The notes under the pieces are model-generated. The model searched no databases. It had not been told where the DNA came from and saw only the letters and a program-made list of their open reading frames with translations. The translations under genes and the position numbers were made by a program. A stretch of DNA of 52,062 nucleotides, taken from the IMG/VR virus record IMGVR_UViG_2531839330_000009. The stretch is one strand, 5' to 3'. This document shows, in pieces, positions 2,623 to 17,306 of this stretch (its first letter is position 1; the number at the start of each line of letters is the position of its first letter). Source of the DNA: a virus (lineage: Duplodnaviria; Heunggongvirae; Uroviricota; Caudoviricetes).

Positions 2623-2849
2623 TTTCTTTCCTCTGTTATGCCATCACCCGCGCTCACCTGGACAGTATGCAGCGGAGACTGAAGAGCCGCAATGCAGGCT
2701 TGTCGTGTTGTGAGGTAAGGAGATTTATTCTTAGTGGGATCTTTGCGTGTTGCCTGAAGACGCCCTGTGCGTATCCAGTTAATGGCAGTCGGTCTGGATA
2801 TCTTGAGAAAATGACAGGCCTCATCGAGTGTGAGGCTGTATGGCTCCAT
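2499..2849 (-). CDS. xis: excisionase (P22 Xis-like), 116 aa
   Basis: Internal ATG at 2849 preceded by [38 protein letters not shown]; overlaps int start as in P22. Confidence 0.7.
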
Positions 2850-3154
2850 TATTTCACCTCTTGCTGTGACATTGTTGAAAAATGGATACCAGCTCGTTGC
2901 TGCCAGACGATCCAACCGAGAGTCATATCCCATGCCATGTATTCGTTATCGCCGTTTTTTGCTCTCCGACGATCTACTAAGTCACCGAAACGCTTTTCCA
3001 TGAATAATTCATAAGCTTCGCGTTCATCTGGTTCTACTTCCAGAGATAGGAGTGCGATTTCATAAGCACGGCGCTCAATATCGTCTCGCACGTCAAGGCT
3101 GCTGATACGCTCTTTAATTTCTTTAATCAGTTCTTTGTCGGTAAAAGTGGTCAT
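2849..3154 (-). CDS. hypothetical early protein (YfdT-like)
   Basis: 101-aa ORF, GGAGG RBS, TAATG stop/start coupling to neighbours. Confidence 0.5.
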   Translation of the reverse strand: MTTFTDKELIKEIKERISSLDVRDDIERRAYEIALLSLEVEPDEREAYELFMEKRFGDLVDRRRAKNGDNEYMAWDMTLGWIVWQQRAGIHFSTMSQQEVK

Positions 3155-3516
3155 TATGCTCCAGCCTCCGGTGCTTTTGGCATTACTGCCCAGTGAGTGA
3201 TATTGACGTTTTCAAGGTCCCCGACCTGAAATGTCCACTGCCATTCTCCGGTTTCTTTTTGTCCCCAGGTGTACCAGAGAGAACGCCAACCAATTAGCCA
3301 GCCTTCTCCGTTAGCATCGAATAACAAAACACTTTCATTTGCTGGTGGCAGTTCAGTTGACACTGGTATTACTTTGTTTTCCTGTGCTGCACATTTAGCT
3401 TCAAGCGCATCGAATTTACGCACCAGGTATTCAGCATCTGTTTCATTTACTTTCAGATCTCGCGGTACACATCTCCCACGAAGAAACCCTTCCATTTCGA
3501 AAACATTCATGCGCAT
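3154..3516 (-). CDS. hypothetical early protein (YfdS-like)
   Basis: 120-aa ORF with GGAG RBS, translationally coupled in the early-left operon. Confidence 0.5.
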   Translation of the reverse strand: MRMNVFEMEGFLRGRCVPRDLKVNETDAEYLVRKFDALEAKCAAQENKVIPVSTELPPANESVLLFDANGEGWLIGWRSLWYTWGQKETGEWQWTFQVGDLENVNITHWAVMPKAPEAGA

Positions 3517-4043
3517 TTGCGTAACTCCGATAACTCGTTAAAGCGTTCCATAAACATCCCGTAGGCATGGCCCGGTGCCAGTGGAATCACGTTGAACATC
3601 TCTGTTGCCGGGATACCTTCCAGTACAGGCCAGAAAGAGCCATCATCAAGCCCGAGATCGCGGCGTTCGGTTGCCAGCATGATGAGATCGGCATATTTCA
3701 CGGGCGTACTCATAACTGGGGGTAACCCGTATTTCTCACGGATTACGGCGTCTATTTTTTCTTCCATTTGTTTATAGTCAGGAAGAAGGCGTTTCAGTGG
3801 TGCGGGAATGTCCTGGCAATACGCTTCTGTTGCATCATGCATTAACGCTTCAAAAGCAAATTCCTGCGGCACCAACTGGCTGCAAAGAACCGCATGTTGG
3901 GCGACGCTGTAGAAGTGCGAAAGATGACCGGCAAAGCGACAGATATTTGAAAGGGAAACCGCGATATCGTTAATATCGATGTCGTCTTTATTTATCCTGT
4001 CATAATAAAAATGCTTCCCGGAAAAAGTTTTAATAAATGACAT
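3507..4043 (-). CDS. HD-domain phosphohydrolase (YfdR-like 5'-deoxynucleotidase)
   Basis: 178 aa from internal ATG with GGAGA RBS; H...HD motif (ALMHDATEAY); resembles E. coli KplE1 YfdR from memory. Confidence 0.7.
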   Translation of the reverse strand: MSFIKTFSGKHFYYDRINKDDIDINDIAVSLSNICRFAGHLSHFYSVAQHAVLCSQLVPQEFAFEALMHDATEAYCQDIPAPLKRLLPDYKQMEEKIDAVIREKYGLPPVMSTPVKYADLIMLATERRDLGLDDGSFWPVLEGIPATEMFNVIPLAPGHAYGMFMERFNELSELRKCA

Positions 4044-4170
4044 TTTGTTCTCCACGTATATGCGCTGCACCGCGCTGAATTTTGGTTAAAGAAAACCCTC
4101 GCCATCAGGCGATTATTGAGTTAATTACGTTTCCATAAATGCCCCCGCAGGGGCATTTGCAGTAATGAAA

Positions 4171-4995
4171 TCAGGCGGTGAAAGTACCAATAAAGGTTTC
4201 TACTTTGCTGTCTTTGAATTTTTCAACAAGCAGATTACGAAATTCGTTAGCCATTTCTTCCTGTACTGCTTCCAGCTGAATAATGCGCAGAACCAGTACA
4301 GGGCGATCACCAGTGATAATGCTGAGGCGTAATTTAAACGGACGTTCTTTCAGGCCTTCAAACGGAACGCATTTAAACTCAAATGCTACTGGCATAATGT
4401 CTTTAGTTTTCGCTTCGACAGACTCCATCAGAGAGCGTTTGCCGCTGAAGTCATTGTCTTCAAAATCAGCGGTCTGGTTTGCTTCAATCGTGATTTTACG
4501 GACCGCCGCAGCCGCTTTTGTTGCCTGAATGGCGTCACCATTAGCATCAAAGCCCACAAGGTAGTCGGCCCAGTCTTCAATCCATTCTGCCAGTGACTTC
4601 TGGGAGTTACGCTCGCCGTTAACAGACAACAGGGCAGAGAACGGTGCTGTCTTTTTCAGTTTGAGAGTGGCGGTGTTATCTGCGTGACCTGGTTCATCAA
4701 TAGTACCCAGGTTAAGCACACTGACGGCTCGCATATTATCAGCATCGATAAAGCAGCGGGTGCCTTCATCTGCAAGATCTTTAGAATAACGGGTAAAGTC
4801 ATCGATGCTGGCAGTGGAAAGCGCACCACGGAAACGGAAGCGATTTAAATTAAATTTTTCCAGATCATGAATGCGGAAATTCTCAGGCAATGCCACAGCA
4901 TCGGCACCAATCTTACTGATAATTTCATTAACACCCTGAGCAGAAATAAGGGCATGGATTTGATTAATTGCGGTTGCGTCTAAGTTCTGAGACAT
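4171..4995 (-). CDS. YfdQ-like phage protein
   Basis: 274-aa ORF with good RBS; same size and position as KplE1 yfdQ. Confidence 0.55.
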
Positions 4996-5060
4996 AATAA
5001 GTCCTCACTATATAAAGATATTCAGTGATGAGATAAATAATCAGTTAATTAAAAACGATA

Positions 5061-5423
5061 TTAACGACCTGCTGCGCGGAGTTTTCCGTCAGGTTCACCG
5101 GCAAGAGTCAGTAACTGTCCCTGGTCTTCCTGCAGAATAGTCAGGCGACCACCGCGATTGACATACATCGGCGTTTCGGTGGTGTCTTCTTCGGAAATTT
5201 TCCCGCGGTTAGTCGGGCGAACATATGAGAGTTTGTGTTTGATTTTCACACGGTTCTCATCAAATGGTTCGATTTCCAGGTTGAGTGAGACCTTACCTTT
5301 GGTTTTCGTGTTCATCACACCGGAAGCGACTTCACTGAGAACTGCGCCGATTTTGGTTTCAAATACGCCGCCGTCCAGCTCCCCGATAAATGCCTGCACA
5401 TCAGTACTGCGTTCGCTAGCCAT
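5061..5423 (-). CDS. YfdP-like hypothetical protein (120 aa)
   Basis: Start at internal ATG (MASERS...) preceded by GAGGAG; the longer track ORF upstream lacks an RBS. Confidence 0.5.
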   Translation of the reverse strand: MASERSTDVQAFIGELDGGVFETKIGAVLSEVASGVMNTKTKGKVSLNLEIEPFDENRVKIKHKLSYVRPTNRGKISEEDTTETPMYVNRGGRLTILQEDQGQLLTLAGEPDGKLRAAGR

Positions 5424-6031
5424 TTTGCTGCTCCTCATCATATCGACCCTGTAAGGTCGGTTAGTTTCTCCACAAAACAGAGAAGAACACCTGCGGTGGC
5501 AGCCGCCCGGATGGATTGGGTTATGAGCCCGTCGTCCGGTGATGCTCTTCTCTGTTTTGTAAAAAGAGCGGTACCAGCCGGAAGCAAGGGTACAAACTGG
5601 TACCGCCAAAGCAGTGGCTGTTGTGGTGGGGTTGTCACTCAGGCGTATGGTCAACCTGACAATCCGGTGTCCTCAACGGGGAAAGAGTAACCCCGCCATA
5701 CTTACCGCCGCGCCATTTCGCGGATTACCACAACGCTGAGAGCACTTAGCCAGTTACGGCACCACACTTTGTCGCGGCTCCATAAATGCCCTCATCGTTG
5801 CACCCTGGTCTCTTCCCAGGCGTCAAACCGAATCGCCACGCTGGTTAGGCGTCTTATCAGCATCATCATTGACTTGCACATTCCGGCTACCTGGTTTGTT
5901 TGCCCGAGCAAGGAGTGGATTGTCCCCTTTAACGTCCCCAGACCGCTAACGACGCATGTGCCATACGCCGTGTTACAACCAAATTTTGTTAGTACCTTGT
6001 TTGTTTGTCTGGAAAGAAAGATAAAATGAAG

Positions 6032-11683: not shown

Positions 11684-12679
11684 GTGACCGTGAGAGCACT
11701 ACTGACCCCTGAAATAGCCCCGCGTATGGGGATCGTATTGTTCAGGCCAGGTTCAGAGCTGATGCCCCTGTTTATGCAGGGGCGTGTTCTGCTGGAGCCT
11801 GAGCCGGAGCGTTATTCATCTTTCGCCAGTGGTGCCGTTCCTGCGGCATCACAACCGCTGGCGGATGATCCTGCCGTTCTGGCCGTGTTCCGTAATGAGG
11901 CAGTGATTCGTCGTGCTGGTGGGGTGGAATGTCTTGAAAGCTGGTTACTTCGTGAAAAAGGCTGCCAGTGGCCTCATTCCGACTGGCACAGCGAGAACAT
12001 GACCACAATGCGACACGCGCCGGGCGCAATCCGTCTGTGCTGGCACTGCGATAACCAGCTTCGCGATCAGTTCACGGAACGGCTGGAATCAATGGCAACG
12101 GATAACTGTGCCCGCTGGGTGTTGTCTGTTGTGCGTCGGGATCTCGGTTTTGATGATAGTCACGTTGTGACAATGCCGGAACTGTGCTGGTGGCTGATTC
12201 GTAATGATCTGGCAGATGCCTTACCGGAAAGTGCAGCCCGTAAGGCACTGAGATTACCGAAGCCTGTTGTGCCGTCTGTCACCCGGGAAAGTGATCTTGT
12301 GCCTTCGGTTCCTGCCACCAGCATCATCCAGGATAAGGCGAAAAAGGTGCTGGCGCTGAAAGTGGATCCGGAGTCGCCGGAGTCTTTTATGTTACGCCCA
12401 AAACGCCGCCGCTGGGTTAATGAAAAGTACACGCGCTGGGTTAAGACACAGCCGTGTGCATGTTGTGGAAAGCCTGCTGATGATCCCCACCACCTGATAG
12501 GCCATGGTCAGGGTGGAATGGGTACAAAAGCGCATGACCTCTTTGTGTTGCCTTTGTGCAGAAAGCATCACGACGAGCTGCATGCGGATACCGTGGCATT
12601 TGAAGAGAAGTATGGTTCCCAGTTGGAGCTGATATTTCGTTTTATCGATCGTGCGCTGGCAATTGGCGTGCTGGCCTGA
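11684..12679 (+). CDS. DUF968-like phage protein with C-terminal Cys/His-rich motif
   Basis: 331 aa, GTG start; C-terminal CxCCG...HHLIGHG...CxxHHDELH zinc-binding-like motif. Confidence 0.45.
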   Translation: MTVRALLTPEIAPRMGIVLFRPGSELMPLFMQGRVLLEPEPERYSSFASGAVPAASQPLADDPAVLAVFRNEAVIRRAGGVECLESWLLREKGCQWPHSDWHSENMTTMRHAPGAIRLCWHCDNQLRDQFTERLESMATDNCARWVLSVVRRDLGFDDSHVVTMPELCWWLIRNDLADALPESAARKALRLPKPVVPSVTRESDLVPSVPATSIIQDKAKKVLALKVDPESPESFMLRPKRRRWVNEKYTRWVKTQPCACCGKPADDPHHLIGHGQGGMGTKAHDLFVLPLCRKHHDELHADTVAFEEKYGSQLELIFRFIDRALAIGVLA

Positions 12680-12697
12680 TTTTTTCGGAGAAAGTTG

Positions 12698-13084
12698 ATG
12701 CGTAATATACAGATGATCCTTGAACGTTGGGGGGCATGGGCAGCGAGTGATAGCTCAGGAGTTGACTATTCGTCTATAGCTGCTGGGTTTAAGGGGCTTC
12801 TTCCATATACCAGAAAGACACGTCTAGCTTGTTCAGATAGTGATGCATTAATTATTGAAGGTAGCCTTGCTCTTCTTAAGAAGAGAAAACCGTACGAACA
12901 TTCTTTGATTGTGGCTCATTACCTGTATGGCATCTCGAAAAGAAAGATCGCAAAGGCACGTAATAAAGACGAAAAATTGATACGTATCGAGATACAGGTT
13001 GCTGAAGGTTTTATCGATGGCTGCCTAAGTATGCTGGATGTGAAACTTGAAATGGATGACTACTCTGAGTCTCCTGTAGCATGA
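12698..13084 (+). CDS. late-gene antiterminator Q (QuuD/phage 21-type)
   Basis: ATG at 12698 with GGAG RBS; MRNIQMILERWGAWAA... resembles DLP12 QuuD from memory; precedes lysis genes. Confidence 0.8.
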   Translation: MRNIQMILERWGAWAASDSSGVDYSSIAAGFKGLLPYTRKTRLACSDSDALIIEGSLALLKKRKPYEHSLIVAHYLYGISKRKIAKARNKDEKLIRIEIQVAEGFIDGCLSMLDVKLEMDDYSESPVA

Positions 13085-13695
13085 AATAATGAAACGACCA
13101 TATGTCTTACATAATATGGTTGATTTGTAGCTGGATGCAATGTTGTACTCATGAATCGCAAGGGATTATCCTCGTCGGTTGTAATTTTTGCATCAGCTAC
13201 TTCCTGCTGAAGATGCTTTCGCCAGTCATCAAGTCTCTCGCCAGATTTCTTAATTTTACAGTAAATGATAATGCCACCATGGTTGTCACGCGCAGTGCCT
13301 GTGCCATATCGCTCGTTGAGCTGGTTCCATCCACCTAAGATGTACGCAGGACCTTTCCATAATTTAGCTTCGCCAATCCATGCAAATCGGCCGAGCTGAT
13401 GTTTAACTAATATATCTATATGCCCTCCATGCTGAGTGTCATGTTCAGCGTCATAATTACGGCCTTTCAAAAAAGCAATAATAACTGATGTGAGCTCATC
13501 TTCACCCCCCTGCTGTGTTTGATACATATGTTTTTGGGTTTCCAAAACATACATCGCGTCATCAAGGTCAACGTAAAGTTGCTTCACGAAATCGTCGTGA
13601 CTTGCTGCAAATTTTCGCTTAAGAAAACCAGACAATTCAGGGTCAAATTGACTTAAGGTGTCTAATTGGGCAAGGTTGAAATTACATTCACTCAT
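13060..13695 (-). CDS. cassette gene C: putative PD-(D/E)xK nuclease-like protein (211 aa)
   Basis: ATG with GGAGG RBS; motif GGHIDILV-(14 aa)-IGEAKLW fits the D...(D/E)xK core; AT-rich; 3' end overlaps the Q 3' end by 25 bp. Confidence 0.5.
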   Translation of the reverse strand: MSECNFNLAQLDTLSQFDPELSGFLKRKFAASHDDFVKQLYVDLDDAMYVLETQKHMYQTQQGGEDELTSVIIAFLKGRNYDAEHDTQHGGHIDILVKHQLGRFAWIGEAKLWKGPAYILGGWNQLNERYGTGTARDNHGGIIIYCKIKKSGERLDDWRKHLQQEVADAKITTDEDNPLRFMSTTLHPATNQPYYVRHMVVSLFHATGDSE

Positions 13696-14110
13696 GTAAT
13701 TCCTCCAAAGCCTCAGTAGGAGTGAAGTATGGGAACAAATAATGATTATAATTATCGACTAATTGACCACTGTAAGGATGATAAAACTTACCTGTATGAA
13801 GCGCATGAGACACGTCATCATCATCGACGGGAATAGGATCACTATCGTCAGACTCGATATACTGGAAATGCATATCTAGCAAGTGCATTCTGTTGCTCGA
13901 AAGATAGTCAGTTACTTTGATCAGTAAAACTTTGGCATCGTTATTTTGCACATCAAGCTTAGTACCATTAACCAAACTTACATATGTTATGTGTTTCAGT
14001 GACTTAGCTTCTTTGCTGGTTAAAAAATCAACCACAACACGACATAAATCTCCAACCGGCCCATGTAGGTCGTGGTTGATTTTCGAGTATATGTCGTGTT
14101 TAGTTAACAT
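13688..14110 (-). CDS. cassette gene B: hypothetical acidic protein (140 aa)
   Basis: Internal ATG at 14110; overlaps gene C start by 8 nt (translational coupling); acidic tract SDDSDPIPVDDDD. Confidence 0.45.
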   Translation of the reverse strand: MLTKHDIYSKINHDLHGPVGDLCRVVVDFLTSKEAKSLKHITYVSLVNGTKLDVQNNDAKVLLIKVTDYLSSNRMHLLDMHFQYIESDDSDPIPVDDDDVSHALHTGKFYHPYSGQLVDNYNHYLFPYFTPTEALEELHE

Positions 14111-14120
14111 AATCAACTCT

Positions 14121-15218
14121 TTATGCAGCCTCGTCAGTGGCTCGCTTTCTCTGTATGCTTGATAGTGACTCTAACATCTTGTTGATTACAAACAAAATAT
14201 GCTCAATTGAGGAGCAACGATCTATGATTGCATCATAAAGGTGACTGTTCGGTTTATCAATCATAGCCCGTTTACCTGGCAGTATTAATTCTACAGGGAA
14301 AACTTGAGAAGCTGAATCAGTCAGATCCCAAATTTTACCGAGTTTGTATTTCGTTAGTATGGGACTTGCCTCTTCGCCCCCATGATGGTAGCTGTCTGAG
14401 CGCAAGCAGCTTTCACCCGGACGGAGTTTTAATGAGCTGGTGTTTCCATCTGATGTAAGAAATGACATCTGCGAGATTCTACCATCTGTTTGCTCGTACA
14501 TTTCTTGTACTAATCCAAAGAGGTCAATGGGCGCAGGTAAAGTCAAACCAGTAGTAGTTCTAATAAACTGATCAAGCAAAAATTGCTGTCGTTCCGACTC
14601 TGAACGAGGCATCACAGATAAATCAACAGTGAGCGCAAGTAAATGCAACTCGGGTAGAATCATTATTGTATTAAAGCACTGTGTAACTTCACGTGTTTTA
14701 CATTTGATTTCACCACCATTGGAGCGAAGAGCTAGCCCAGCATCGCTTAAATGGGTCGCGTCGAGTTCAATAGTTTCTGTGTAGTATGCTTTCGACGTAA
14801 GAATCGTTGTTTCTAAAGAAACTTTGTTTACGACAGAAAATGTAGTTTCTAAAAAATGAAGATCTGTATCAGCTGCAAGCAACACATCTTTAGGCAAAGG
14901 ATATGGATAGCTTTCGCAAAAAACGGATTCGTCTCTTTCTAGGGCATTTATATTCTCCCGTAGAGTTTGCACTTCTTCCGGTTCTAACTTATACAGCTTA
15001 ACTAAACGGGTCCCACTCAATAGTAAATTTTGCCATACTTCACCTATATGAGTACTTACAGCTTCCTGATCTACATCTTCTGTTGCTTGGAGCCTCGCGA
15101 TAAATGGGTCAAGGCCAACTGATGTGACACCAAGTGGTTCCCCCACAATTTTTTTTGTGAGCTTCCATCCAACACGTTCGGTGATATCTCTTAAAAGGTT
15201 GATCGTTTGCTCATTCAT
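14121..15218 (-). CDS. cassette gene A: hypothetical protein (365 aa)
   Basis: Internal ATG at 15218 (track ORF begins at a TTG further upstream); no recognisable motif; AT-rich; first gene of the 3-gene minus-strand operon. Confidence 0.45.
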   Translation of the reverse strand: MNEQTINLLRDITERVGWKLTKKIVGEPLGVTSVGLDPFIARLQATEDVDQEAVSTHIGEVWQNLLLSGTRLVKLYKLEPEEVQTLRENINALERDESVFCESYPYPLPKDVLLAADTDLHFLETTFSVVNKVSLETTILTSKAYYTETIELDATHLSDAGLALRSNGGEIKCKTREVTQCFNTIMILPELHLLALTVDLSVMPRSESERQQFLLDQFIRTTTGLTLPAPIDLFGLVQEMYEQTDGRISQMSFLTSDGNTSSLKLRPGESCLRSDSYHHGGEEASPILTKYKLGKIWDLTDSASQVFPVELILPGKRAMIDKPNSHLYDAIIDRCSSIEHILFVINKMLESLSSIQRKRATDEAA

Positions 15219-15364
15219 AAGAAACCCTTTTTTGTATTTTTTTGTACTTTTTGAAGGCAATTTAGATAGTCCTTAACATACTAAATTAACGAACATATTT
15301 CATTAGCACGGTCCGCAAAAAGTGATGTATCATGTTAAGAGTGGTTACTTCGCCACACAACTTA

Positions 15365-15386
15365 AACCCGCCGTCGAGCGGGTTTT
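15365..15386 (+). terminator. tR'-like intrinsic terminator in the late-promoter region
   Basis: AACCCGC-CGTCGA-GCGGGTT hairpin followed by TTTT, ~150 bp upstream of the holin gene. Confidence 0.45.
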
Positions 15387-15536
15387 GTCATTTCTAGGCC
15401 TTGGTATTCGTTGGGCTTGGTCTATCTGGTACTTATCCATTGGCTCGACTTCTTTTACGTTTCCGCTTCTGATTTGCGGTACATGATGTTCCCTCAATTT
15501 GCACCTCCTGTATTGCGAGGTGAGAGATAACTACAA

Positions 15537-15863
15537 ATGCCTCATAACCCAAATACCTGGCTGGACTTGGTCCAGAGCTGGTGGCGTGGAGACACACCGC
15601 TGGGTGCAGTGATTATGTCGATCGTTATGGCTGGTTTGCGCATCGCCTATTTTGGCGGTGGTGGTGGCTGGAAGCGAAAAACGCTCGAGATTTTGCTATG
15701 TGGCGCTCTGACGCTGACCTTTGCATCCGCTCTTGAGTATGTCGGATGGCCTAAATCGCTTTCTGTTGCCATTGGTGGTGGCGTGGGGCTGATCGGTGTC
15801 GATGCTATTCGTGGGGCTGCAATGCGAGTAATCGGTAACAAATTTGGTAGCTCGAAGGAGTAA
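15537..15863 (+). CDS. holin
   Basis: 108 aa, hydrophobic segments, immediately upstream of lambda R-like endolysin. Confidence 0.75.
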   Translation: MPHNPNTWLDLVQSWWRGDTPLGAVIMSIVMAGLRIAYFGGGGGWKRKTLEILLCGALTLTFASALEYVGWPKSLSVAIGGGVGLIGVDAIRGAAMRVIGNKFGSSKE

Positions 15864-15866
15864 TTT

Positions 15867-16343
15867 ATGCAGGCACTAAATTCCCAGCGTAAAGCTTTCC
15901 TGGATATGGTGGCATGGTCAGAAGGAACGGATAACGGGCGACAACCGACACGTAACCACGGTTATGATGTTATTGTTGGTGGTGAACTGTTCACTGATTA
16001 CTCCGATCCCCCTCGCAAACGTGTCACGCTAAACCCCAAACTCAAATCAACAGCCGCCGGACGTTATCAGCTTCTTTCACGCTGGTGGGATGCTTACCGT
16101 AAGCAGCTTGCTCTGAAAGACTTCTCTCCGAAAAGCCAGGATGCTGTGGCATTGCAGCAGATTAAGGAGCGTGGCGCTTTACCGATGATTGATCGCGGTG
16201 ATATTCGTCAGGCAATTGACCGTTGCAGCAATATCTGGGCTTCACTGCCGGGCGCTGGTTATGGTCAGTTCGAGCATAAGGCTGACAGCCTGATTGCAAA
16301 ATTCAAAGAAGCAGGCGGAACGGTCAGAGAGATTGAGGTATGA
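15867..16343 (+). CDS. R: endolysin, lambda R-type lytic transglycosylase
   Basis: 158 aa, near-identical to lambda R from memory ([22 protein letters not shown]...). Confidence 0.9.
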
Positions 16344-16832: not shown

Positions 16833-17126
16833 TTATTGTGAGCAATACACCCGCGCTTCCAGCGGAGTATAAATGCCTAAAGTAATAAAACCGAGCAATC
16901 CATTTACGAATGTTTGCTGGGTTTCTGTTTTAACCACATTTTCTGCGCCGCCACAAATTTTGGCTGCATCAACAGTTTTCTCCTGTCCAATTCCCGAAAC
17001 GAAGAAATGATGGGTGATGGTTTCCTTTGGTGTTACTGCTGTCGGTTTGTTTCCAACAGTAAACGTCTGTTGAGCACATCCTGTAATAAGCATTGCCAGA
17101 GCGGCAGAAAACAACATTTTTTTCAT
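16833..17126 (-). CDS. bor: Bor lipoprotein (serum-resistance factor)
   Basis: 97 aa from internal ATG (MKKMLF...ITGCAQQ lipobox); near-identical to lambda Bor from memory. Confidence 0.85.
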   Translation of the reverse strand: MKKMLFSAALAMLITGCAQQTFTVGNKPTAVTPKETITHHFFVSGIGQEKTVDAAKICGGAENVVKTETQQTFVNGLLGFITLGIYTPLEARVYCSQ

Positions 17127-17306
17127 CTTATTATCCTGCATTGTTAAAAACGGCAGAATCCTATGTGACAACAATTAAACGATAGTTAAATGGATTGATG
17201 AAAATTAAAACTATATAGGTGTACGGTCAGACTATTGGAGGTAGTCAGGATTTGAATGTCAGTCTGTTGTCGGCATTCTGGCAATGCAATTTGGATAAAG
17301 CGGGGA

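Follow-up and report, generated by a model that had tools for sequence, protein, structure and literature searches.

A copy of the DS-21 defence system as cargo in the Q-holin slot of a thrW lambdoid prophage, with a predicted nuclease and a partner of predicted RdgC-like fold

The 52,062-nucleotide (nt) virus sequence analysed here (IMG/VR record IMGVR_UViG_2531839330_000009, Caudoviricetes; the whole stretch is called the window below) carries an antisense three-gene cassette between the antiterminator gene Q and the holin gene. An earlier examination of the DNA letters, referred to here as the sequence-only reading, had proposed that these genes form an undescribed defence or abortive-infection module in a thrW prophage. 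A tRNA-Thr(CGT) at 1369-1444 supports the assignment to thrW. The cassette consists of gene A (14121-15218, 365 amino acids (aa), pI 5.0, WP_001532221.1), gene B (13688-14110, 140 aa, pI 5.3, WP_021552536.1) and gene C (13060-13695, 211 aa, WP_001557682.1 except for the substitution W63G), all on the minus strand and equivalent to genes 1, 2 and 3 of the published system DS-21. An in-frame TTG at 15260 would extend A by 14 aa; the RefSeq start is the ATG. A and B are separated by 10 nt, the stop of B overlaps the start of C by 8 nt, a GGAGG Shine-Dalgarno sequence lies 7 nt upstream of the ATG of C, and the 3' end of C overlaps that of Q by 25 nt. The GC content of the cassette is 0.40, compared to 0.54 in the left and 0.51 in the right flank. 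Each of the three proteins is acidic, and neither a Walker A motif nor a transmembrane (TM) segment was detected in any of them. The open reading frame (ORF) call, the two overlaps, the AT-rich composition, the Shine-Dalgarno sequence and the lack of Walker A motifs are as the sequence-only reading had described them.

The system is not new. DS-21 (working id TOXO) was reported in the DefensePredictor study of DeWeirdt et al. (Science 2026, PMC13092281; bioRxiv 10.1101/2025.01.08.631726, bioRxiv version January 2025), where its supplementary entry is a single transcription unit on contig NZ_QOXJ01000032.1 (7805-9963) in the category 'Predicted novel defense gene', with defensive set to TRUE and DS-21 as DS_name; Table S8 marks it as replicated (PMC13092281). 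Compared to the Table S8 proteins, A is identical in 365/365 residues, B in 140/140 and C in 210/211, and both gene order and the operon span of 2159 bp are the same. We are close to certain that these genes are DS-21, here borne as cargo by a thrW lambdoid prophage in its Q-to-lysis hotspot. Since A and B match the tested proteins in every residue and C is one residue off, the functional guess of the sequence-only reading was right; its description of the module as undescribed falls, and because DS-21 is already published there is nothing to claim as a discovery. The three RefSeq entries are all named 'hypothetical'. Literature searches of main texts for their accessions gave no match, nor did searches for 'DS-21' and 'PDC-S54'; the identification came from supplementary tables only.

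The defence phenotype is that of the reference allele, which was expressed in E. coli MG1655 with its native upstream region and blocks Bas1 and Bas11 (PMC13092281). Expression of the clone relied on a 'predicted native promoter region' (PMC13092281). The entries for DS-21 in Table S7 give, as the negative logarithm of the efficiency of plating, 4.48 for Bas1 (strong protection) and 2.0 for Bas11 (protection), and smaller plaques only for Bas67 (0.82), Bas3 (0.52), T3 (0.30) and Bas9 (0.18) (PMC13092281). The paper differs from the present analysis in that it offers a weak domain call for A (SAP/HeH, 0.64) and describes neither a mechanism, nor the Q-holin thrW setting, nor an RdgC-like fold of A.

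Protein C is the predicted nuclease. An AlphaFold2 model built from 39 homologues has a predicted local distance difference test (pLDDT) score of 90.6 and displays a restriction-endonuclease-like alpha/beta core with an N-terminal three-helix extension. Structure comparison places it closest to the type II enzymes BstYI, BamHI and BglII and to McrC. This agrees with the PD-(D/E)xK-like nuclease core proposed from the letters, for which structure prediction and fold comparison had been suggested as a check. The motifs GGHIDILV, starting at residue 90, and IGEAKLW, starting at residue 107, are indeed present, but the spacer between them is 9 residues and not 14; the latter figure counts the residues that separate D94 from E109. 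E65, D66, D94, E109, K111 and Q125 are invariant in 39 C homologues and also in 18 C sequences down to 26% identity. Because D94, E109, K111, E65 and Q125 are invariant, the alignments indicate that the D94...E109-x-K111 motif is not a chance match, and model and conservation together identify C as a putative PD-(D/E)xK nuclease with a catalytic site under selection. The authors' HHpred search classifies C as a DpnII-MboI-type PDDEXK enzyme (0.96), and their HHblits search as LmuA_effector_PDDEXK (probability 94.7 over 54% coverage) (PMC13092281).

Profile scans, also put forward by the sequence-only reading, were largely silent. A gave no match in Pfam, NCBIfam or PADLOC, B none in Pfam, NCBIfam or PADLOC v2, and C nothing in the latter three other than a weak match to PDC-S54. 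Sequence searches of the PDB gave no meaningful match. The PDC-S54 match aligns the nuclease core of C with positions 254-374 of a 410-position model and recurs with the C homologues from Vibrio and from locus L049 (E 1e-5 to 2e-6). PADLOC PDC systems are untested defence candidates (Payne et al. bioRxiv 10.1101/2024.01.29.577857), and PDC-S54 is a single-gene candidate of about twice the length of C. The likeness is limited to the nuclease core of C, and A and B have no PADLOC counterpart.

Protein B contains the conserved motifs TDYLSS, HLLxMHFQ and FYHPxSG, and superfamily-wide only L70, P112 and G115 are invariant. The authors' HHpred calls for B are DUF5939 (0.94) and a winged helix-turn-helix (0.8) (PMC13092281); the DUF5939 call was not reproduced by HMMER against Pfam. 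The B/C overlap is kept at 4-11 nt in Yersinia, Vibrio, Grimontia and metagenome loci. Both this coupling and the acidic character of B would be expected if B and C were a type II toxin-antitoxin pair with B as antitoxin and C as toxin.

The model of A (pLDDT 84) predicts an RdgC-like fold with an N-terminal helix-extended-helix (HeH) segment. By two methods, RdgC is the top structural match and no other is significant; it is also the sole Foldseek match at E <= 0.001 (E 3.8e-4, prob 0.99). The authors' domain call for the same protein was 'HeH' (SAP) at residues 16-48, with a probability of 0.64 (PMC13092281). Homology to RdgC or RexA was rejected at the sequence level by hhalign (probabilities below 1%). 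Because the Foldseek match is accompanied by no profile relationship, we regard A as a predicted RdgC-fold protein that is a member of neither the RdgC nor the RexA family. The highest hydropathy of A over a 19-residue window (KD19 1.71) lies within predicted beta strands. An exhaustive profile search collected 454 cluster representatives of the A superfamily (50% identity), nearly all of them full length with 340-380 aa; among 110 diverse members, no family of Pfam or PADLOC turned up repeatedly. D199, Y241, G246, F253, H278 and G281 are invariant throughout the superfamily.

The three genes form an obligate, mobile unit across very diverse hosts and mobile elements. Order A-B-C, gene sizes and the B/C overlap persist in widely differing settings, which include Yersinia phages, a corticovirus-like Vibrio prophage, a Mu-like Grimontia prophage where the trio lies between F and protease genes, a small element with a GPA-type replication initiator, a chromosomal site amid housekeeping genes, a distant metagenome contig, and locus L049, where it adjoins a RelB antitoxin gene. 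As the trio is also present in Mu-like and corticovirus-like elements and on a chromosome, a core lambdoid function is rejected. Searches of viral contigs with single distant members of A gave no loci. Mid-distance relatives of A, used to scan metagenomes, yielded 26 loci, and in every one that was long enough the profile hidden Markov models of B and C match the next two genes. Effector swapping within the A superfamily is therefore ruled out, as distant loci keep B and C. The host contigs of the distant loci range from 36% to 65% GC, and beside the trio lie phage structural genes, integrases, a transposase, type IIG and C5 restriction-modification (R-M) genes, MzaB, MADS mad2, PDC-S36 and housekeeping genes. 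Among complete E. coli genomes the cassette is rare (12/5426). In three loci gene A is broken next to intact B and C (L049 6335-7401, L090 1715-4011, L104 2382-5720): it is split into two ORFs in the first and interrupted by about 1.1-2.2 kb in the other two. These copies could reflect decay, insertions or assembly errors.

The cassette of the window is bordered on the left by Q (12695-13084, plus strand; Pfam Phage_antitermQ, 3.9e-50), which is convergent with C, and on the right by a gene annotated 'phage holin, lambda family' in identical genomes (15537-15863, plus strand). Upstream of A, an AT-rich region at 15219-15301 (minus strand) is presumed to hold promoter and leader, and a scan of it for sigma-70 consensus sequences found no promoter. 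The right boundary of the system is a backbone block at 15302-15386 (plus strand), which lies outside the system and is common to SfII, SfIV, 1720a-02 and other phages (megablast, query 2303-2387); it is also kept upstream of A in divergent lambdoid loci. A terminator-like hairpin (15364-15385) closes the block, with about 150 nt between it and the downstream holin gene. This block is probably a Q-dependent late promoter with a tR' module, and if so the cassette would sit upstream of pR', as had been surmised from the letters. Rfam detected no RNA family within 12600-16000, and megablast against the INPHARED phages matched the flanks only, the cassette finding no match. That the convergent 25-nt overlap with Q silences the cassette by read-through upon induction is speculation.

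In each of the approximately 36 enterobacterial viral contigs that carry the trio, C is arranged tail-to-tail with a Q-family gene, even at 36-38% Q identity. The window has the order DUF968, Q, cassette and holin gene, unlike a divergent group of IMG/VR contigs (L027-L045) in which Q is followed by antisense C-B-A and then DUF968; the tail-to-tail linkage with Q survives this rearranged backbone. Sibling prophages carry other antisense cargo in the same Q-holin slot. In Shigella phage SfII (L008 1832-3446) the genes SfII_49/50 match PADLOC candidate PDC-M53 B/A (3e-54 and 2e-32), and in another E. coli prophage (L007 3428-5929) the slot holds two hypothetical genes, one of them weakly DUF4064-like, and IS5. 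This suggests that the slot behaves as an exchangeable defence-cargo site; a cargo hotspot in the Q-to-lysis interval had been expected.

Comparison with known systems narrows the possibilities. Like the cassette, lambda RexAB is a prophage-encoded exclusion system expressed in the lysogen. The cassette contains no RexA homologue, and only the fold class is common, via RdgC. RexB is a polytopic membrane effector, whereas B and C have no TM-like segment, and a Rex-type membrane effector is rejected, there being no TM protein in the cassette. A shares its predicted fold with E. coli RdgC (PDB 2OWL) and does not group with it by sequence; A exceeds RdgC by 60 residues, carries an additional helical region at its N terminus and is found on mobile elements, encoded together with a nuclease. 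Lamassu (LmuA-LmuB-LmuC) and Hachiman (HamA-HamB) differ in that the cassette lacks an SMC-like ATPase, a helicase and a Walker A motif, and its putative sensor is of a different fold and NTPase-free. No PADLOC model of Lamassu (at E<=1) or Hachiman matched A, B or C. For an LmuA-type effector, the authors' HHblits search gave a call for C and the PADLOC models gave no match. The type II restriction endonucleases BamHI, BglII and BstYI are only 7-10% identical to C, which has the additional three-helix region and two obligate partner genes. No methyltransferase is present in the cassette, as a domain of A or B, or beside the cassette, where the neighbours are Q and the holin gene. Membership of the Lamassu, Hachiman or R-M systems is rejected, as there is no ATPase, helicase or methyltransferase.

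For DS-21 we regard as established the published defence phenotype, the nuclease fold and conserved active site of the C model, the RdgC-type fold of the A model, the obligate trio and the translational coupling of B and C. The overall explanation that we favour, with moderate confidence, is that the window holds a DS-21 copy in which A is the sensor, B the adaptor and C the nuclease. The effector C would be a metal-dependent PD-(D/E)xK DNA nuclease that cuts DNA once it is licensed. A would serve as an RdgC-fold sensor or loader: it would bind or encircle DNA and detect some property of phage DNA that is entering the cell or being replicated, for example ends or replication and recombination intermediates. 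B could be a small acidic, winged-helix-like adaptor or inhibitor that bridges A and C and holds C inactive until A is engaged. Because neither a methyltransferase nor an NTPase is present, self-protection would have to be achieved by gating the nuclease and not by marking host DNA. We consider this division of labour among the three proteins as likely to be wrong as right. A more specific proposal is that DS-21 provides an NTPase-free 'DNA clamp-gated nuclease' immunity, in which A senses phage DNA topology or replication and recombination intermediates and unleashes C via B; this is tentative, and we think it possible rather than probable.

The same proteins could also act in a restriction-like manner. 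Here A, B and C would be constitutively competent and cut DNA only if it bears something that host DNA lacks, for instance a modified base, a certain sequence context or a structure, comparable to a type IV/McrBC-style system minus the GTPase, with A and B providing DNA recognition and no activation triggered by infection. The closeness of C to BstYI, BamHI, BglII and McrC and its DpnII-MboI-like HHpred call fit this scheme, as do the winged-helix-like B and the SAP-like motif of A, which are both DNA-recognition modules (PMC13092281). It would also be consistent with the narrow range of Bas1 and Bas11 that the Table S7 entries suggest and with the R-M genes that adjoin distant copies in some loci. 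However, the cassette has no methyltransferase in it or beside it, the queuosine-type modified phages Bas19-25 of the panel are not recorded as restricted in the DS-21 entries considered (PMC13092281), and the RdgC fold is associated with non-specific DNA binding (PMC11077077). We consider restriction of this type quite unlikely. Far less probable is a role in the phage life cycle, where A would modulate RecA, recombination or the lysis-lysogeny switch in the way of RdgC or RexA, C would be a recombination nuclease, and phages would be excluded only incidentally. RdgC inhibits RecA functions and RexA biases the lambda switch (PMC11077077), and the constant tail-to-tail linkage with Q in enterobacterial phages might hint at co-regulation with late-gene control. 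Yet Mu-like, corticovirus-like and other elements carry the trio in the absence of Q, as does a plain chromosomal site amid housekeeping genes, sibling phages have unrelated cargo in the slot, the cassette is compositionally foreign and antisense to the late operon, and DS-21 protects when cloned alone in a non-lysogen (PMC13092281).

Several observations weigh against the sensor-adaptor-nuclease explanation. The similarity of A to RdgC is at the level of the fold only, with TM-scores of 0.33-0.38 and a large root-mean-square deviation. Pfam searches with 28 close and 110 distant members of A gave no match to RdgC (PF04381), and hhalign comparison of the A superfamily gave a probability of 0.7% with E. 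coli RdgC and of 0.2% with lambda RexA. The most conserved segment of A (residues 271-288, including the invariant H278 and G281) is modelled at pLDDT <50, and the invariant polar residues D199, Y241 and H278 could serve ligand binding or catalysis and not DNA clamping. The acidic nature of all three proteins is unusual for non-specific DNA binders. In the supplementary entries considered, strong protection is confined to one or two phages out of 24, and many systems of the same screen act against Bas1 (PMC13092281). DS-21 is not discussed anywhere in the main text of DeWeirdt et al. (PMC13092281). Finally, the C protein of the window carries W63G relative to the tested allele.

The W63G substitution raises the question whether the window copy is functional. 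Codon 63 of C (13507-13509, minus strand) is GGG (Gly), whereas TGG (Trp) stands in the tested DS-21 allele and in every close relative; among the close alleles compared (P0001, L001, L012-L016) W63G is found in the window only. The change creates a run of six G and could be either a hypomorphic mutation or a homopolymer sequencing error. In a scenario compatible with any of the mechanisms above, the window copy would be a disabled allele in which W63G, or a sequencing error in the G6 run that mimics it, accounts for an inactive or weakened nuclease. Such a loss would fit the uniqueness of the substitution and the conservation of position 63, which lies two residues before the invariant E65-D66 pair and is occupied in 38 homologues by Trp (19), Phe (12), Tyr (1) or Leu (1) or a gap (5), thus being aromatic in 32/38 and never Gly. 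On the other hand, residue 63 is absent altogether in those five homologues, the model places it in a loop ahead of the first core helix, and the three ORFs are otherwise intact, with A and B identical to the tested allele. We think a disabled copy unlikely, and the W63G allele offers a ready-made test of a conserved residue.

If the clamp-gated proposal were true, A would be the founding member of a large unannotated superfamily (about 454 clusters at 50% identity) whose members are invariably accompanied by B and C, and DS-21 would be a mechanistic cousin of lambda RexA with a tractable nuclease read-out for what RexA-type sensors recognise. The structure paper on lambda RexA found the same relatives for RexA and defines a RexA/RdgC/Iml3/Chl4 DNA-binding fold (PMC11077077). 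The link between the fold of A and RdgC/RexA proposes a sensor for a system hitherto annotated only via its nuclease, and it ties DS-21 to the 70-year-old Rex exclusion problem. New, testable leads are the putative sensor with its RdgC/RexA-type fold, the fixed composition of the trio and how broad the family is. Reading of the raw sequence alone had correctly pointed to a genuine defence system in the Q-to-lysis hotspot.

Three further observations concern genes near the cassette or its relatives. In the window, a 113-aa ORF with a lipoprotein signal (…LITGC…) lies antisense just past the Rz/Rz1 region (16833-17174, minus strand), within a further AT-rich patch with a GC content of about 0.41. 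It resembles the lambda Bor lipoprotein moron and, if Bor-like, would be a second independent cargo gene of the lysis region. The icd-integrated prophage of E. coli A17 (L001), which has an identical DS-21 cassette, contains a DUF262-domain gene and a hypothetical gene adjoining the integrase (2624-4335). DUF262 occurs in GmrSD-type enzymes, and the two genes may be further defence cargo. Next to the distant DS-21-like trio of L049, four tandem paralogues (4247-6018, minus strand) encode secreted proteins of approximately 105-119 aa, each with three repeats of a Cys-containing unit of about 30 aa (…YK.C.F.AG.K..C..PF.GK.V.LDQG…).

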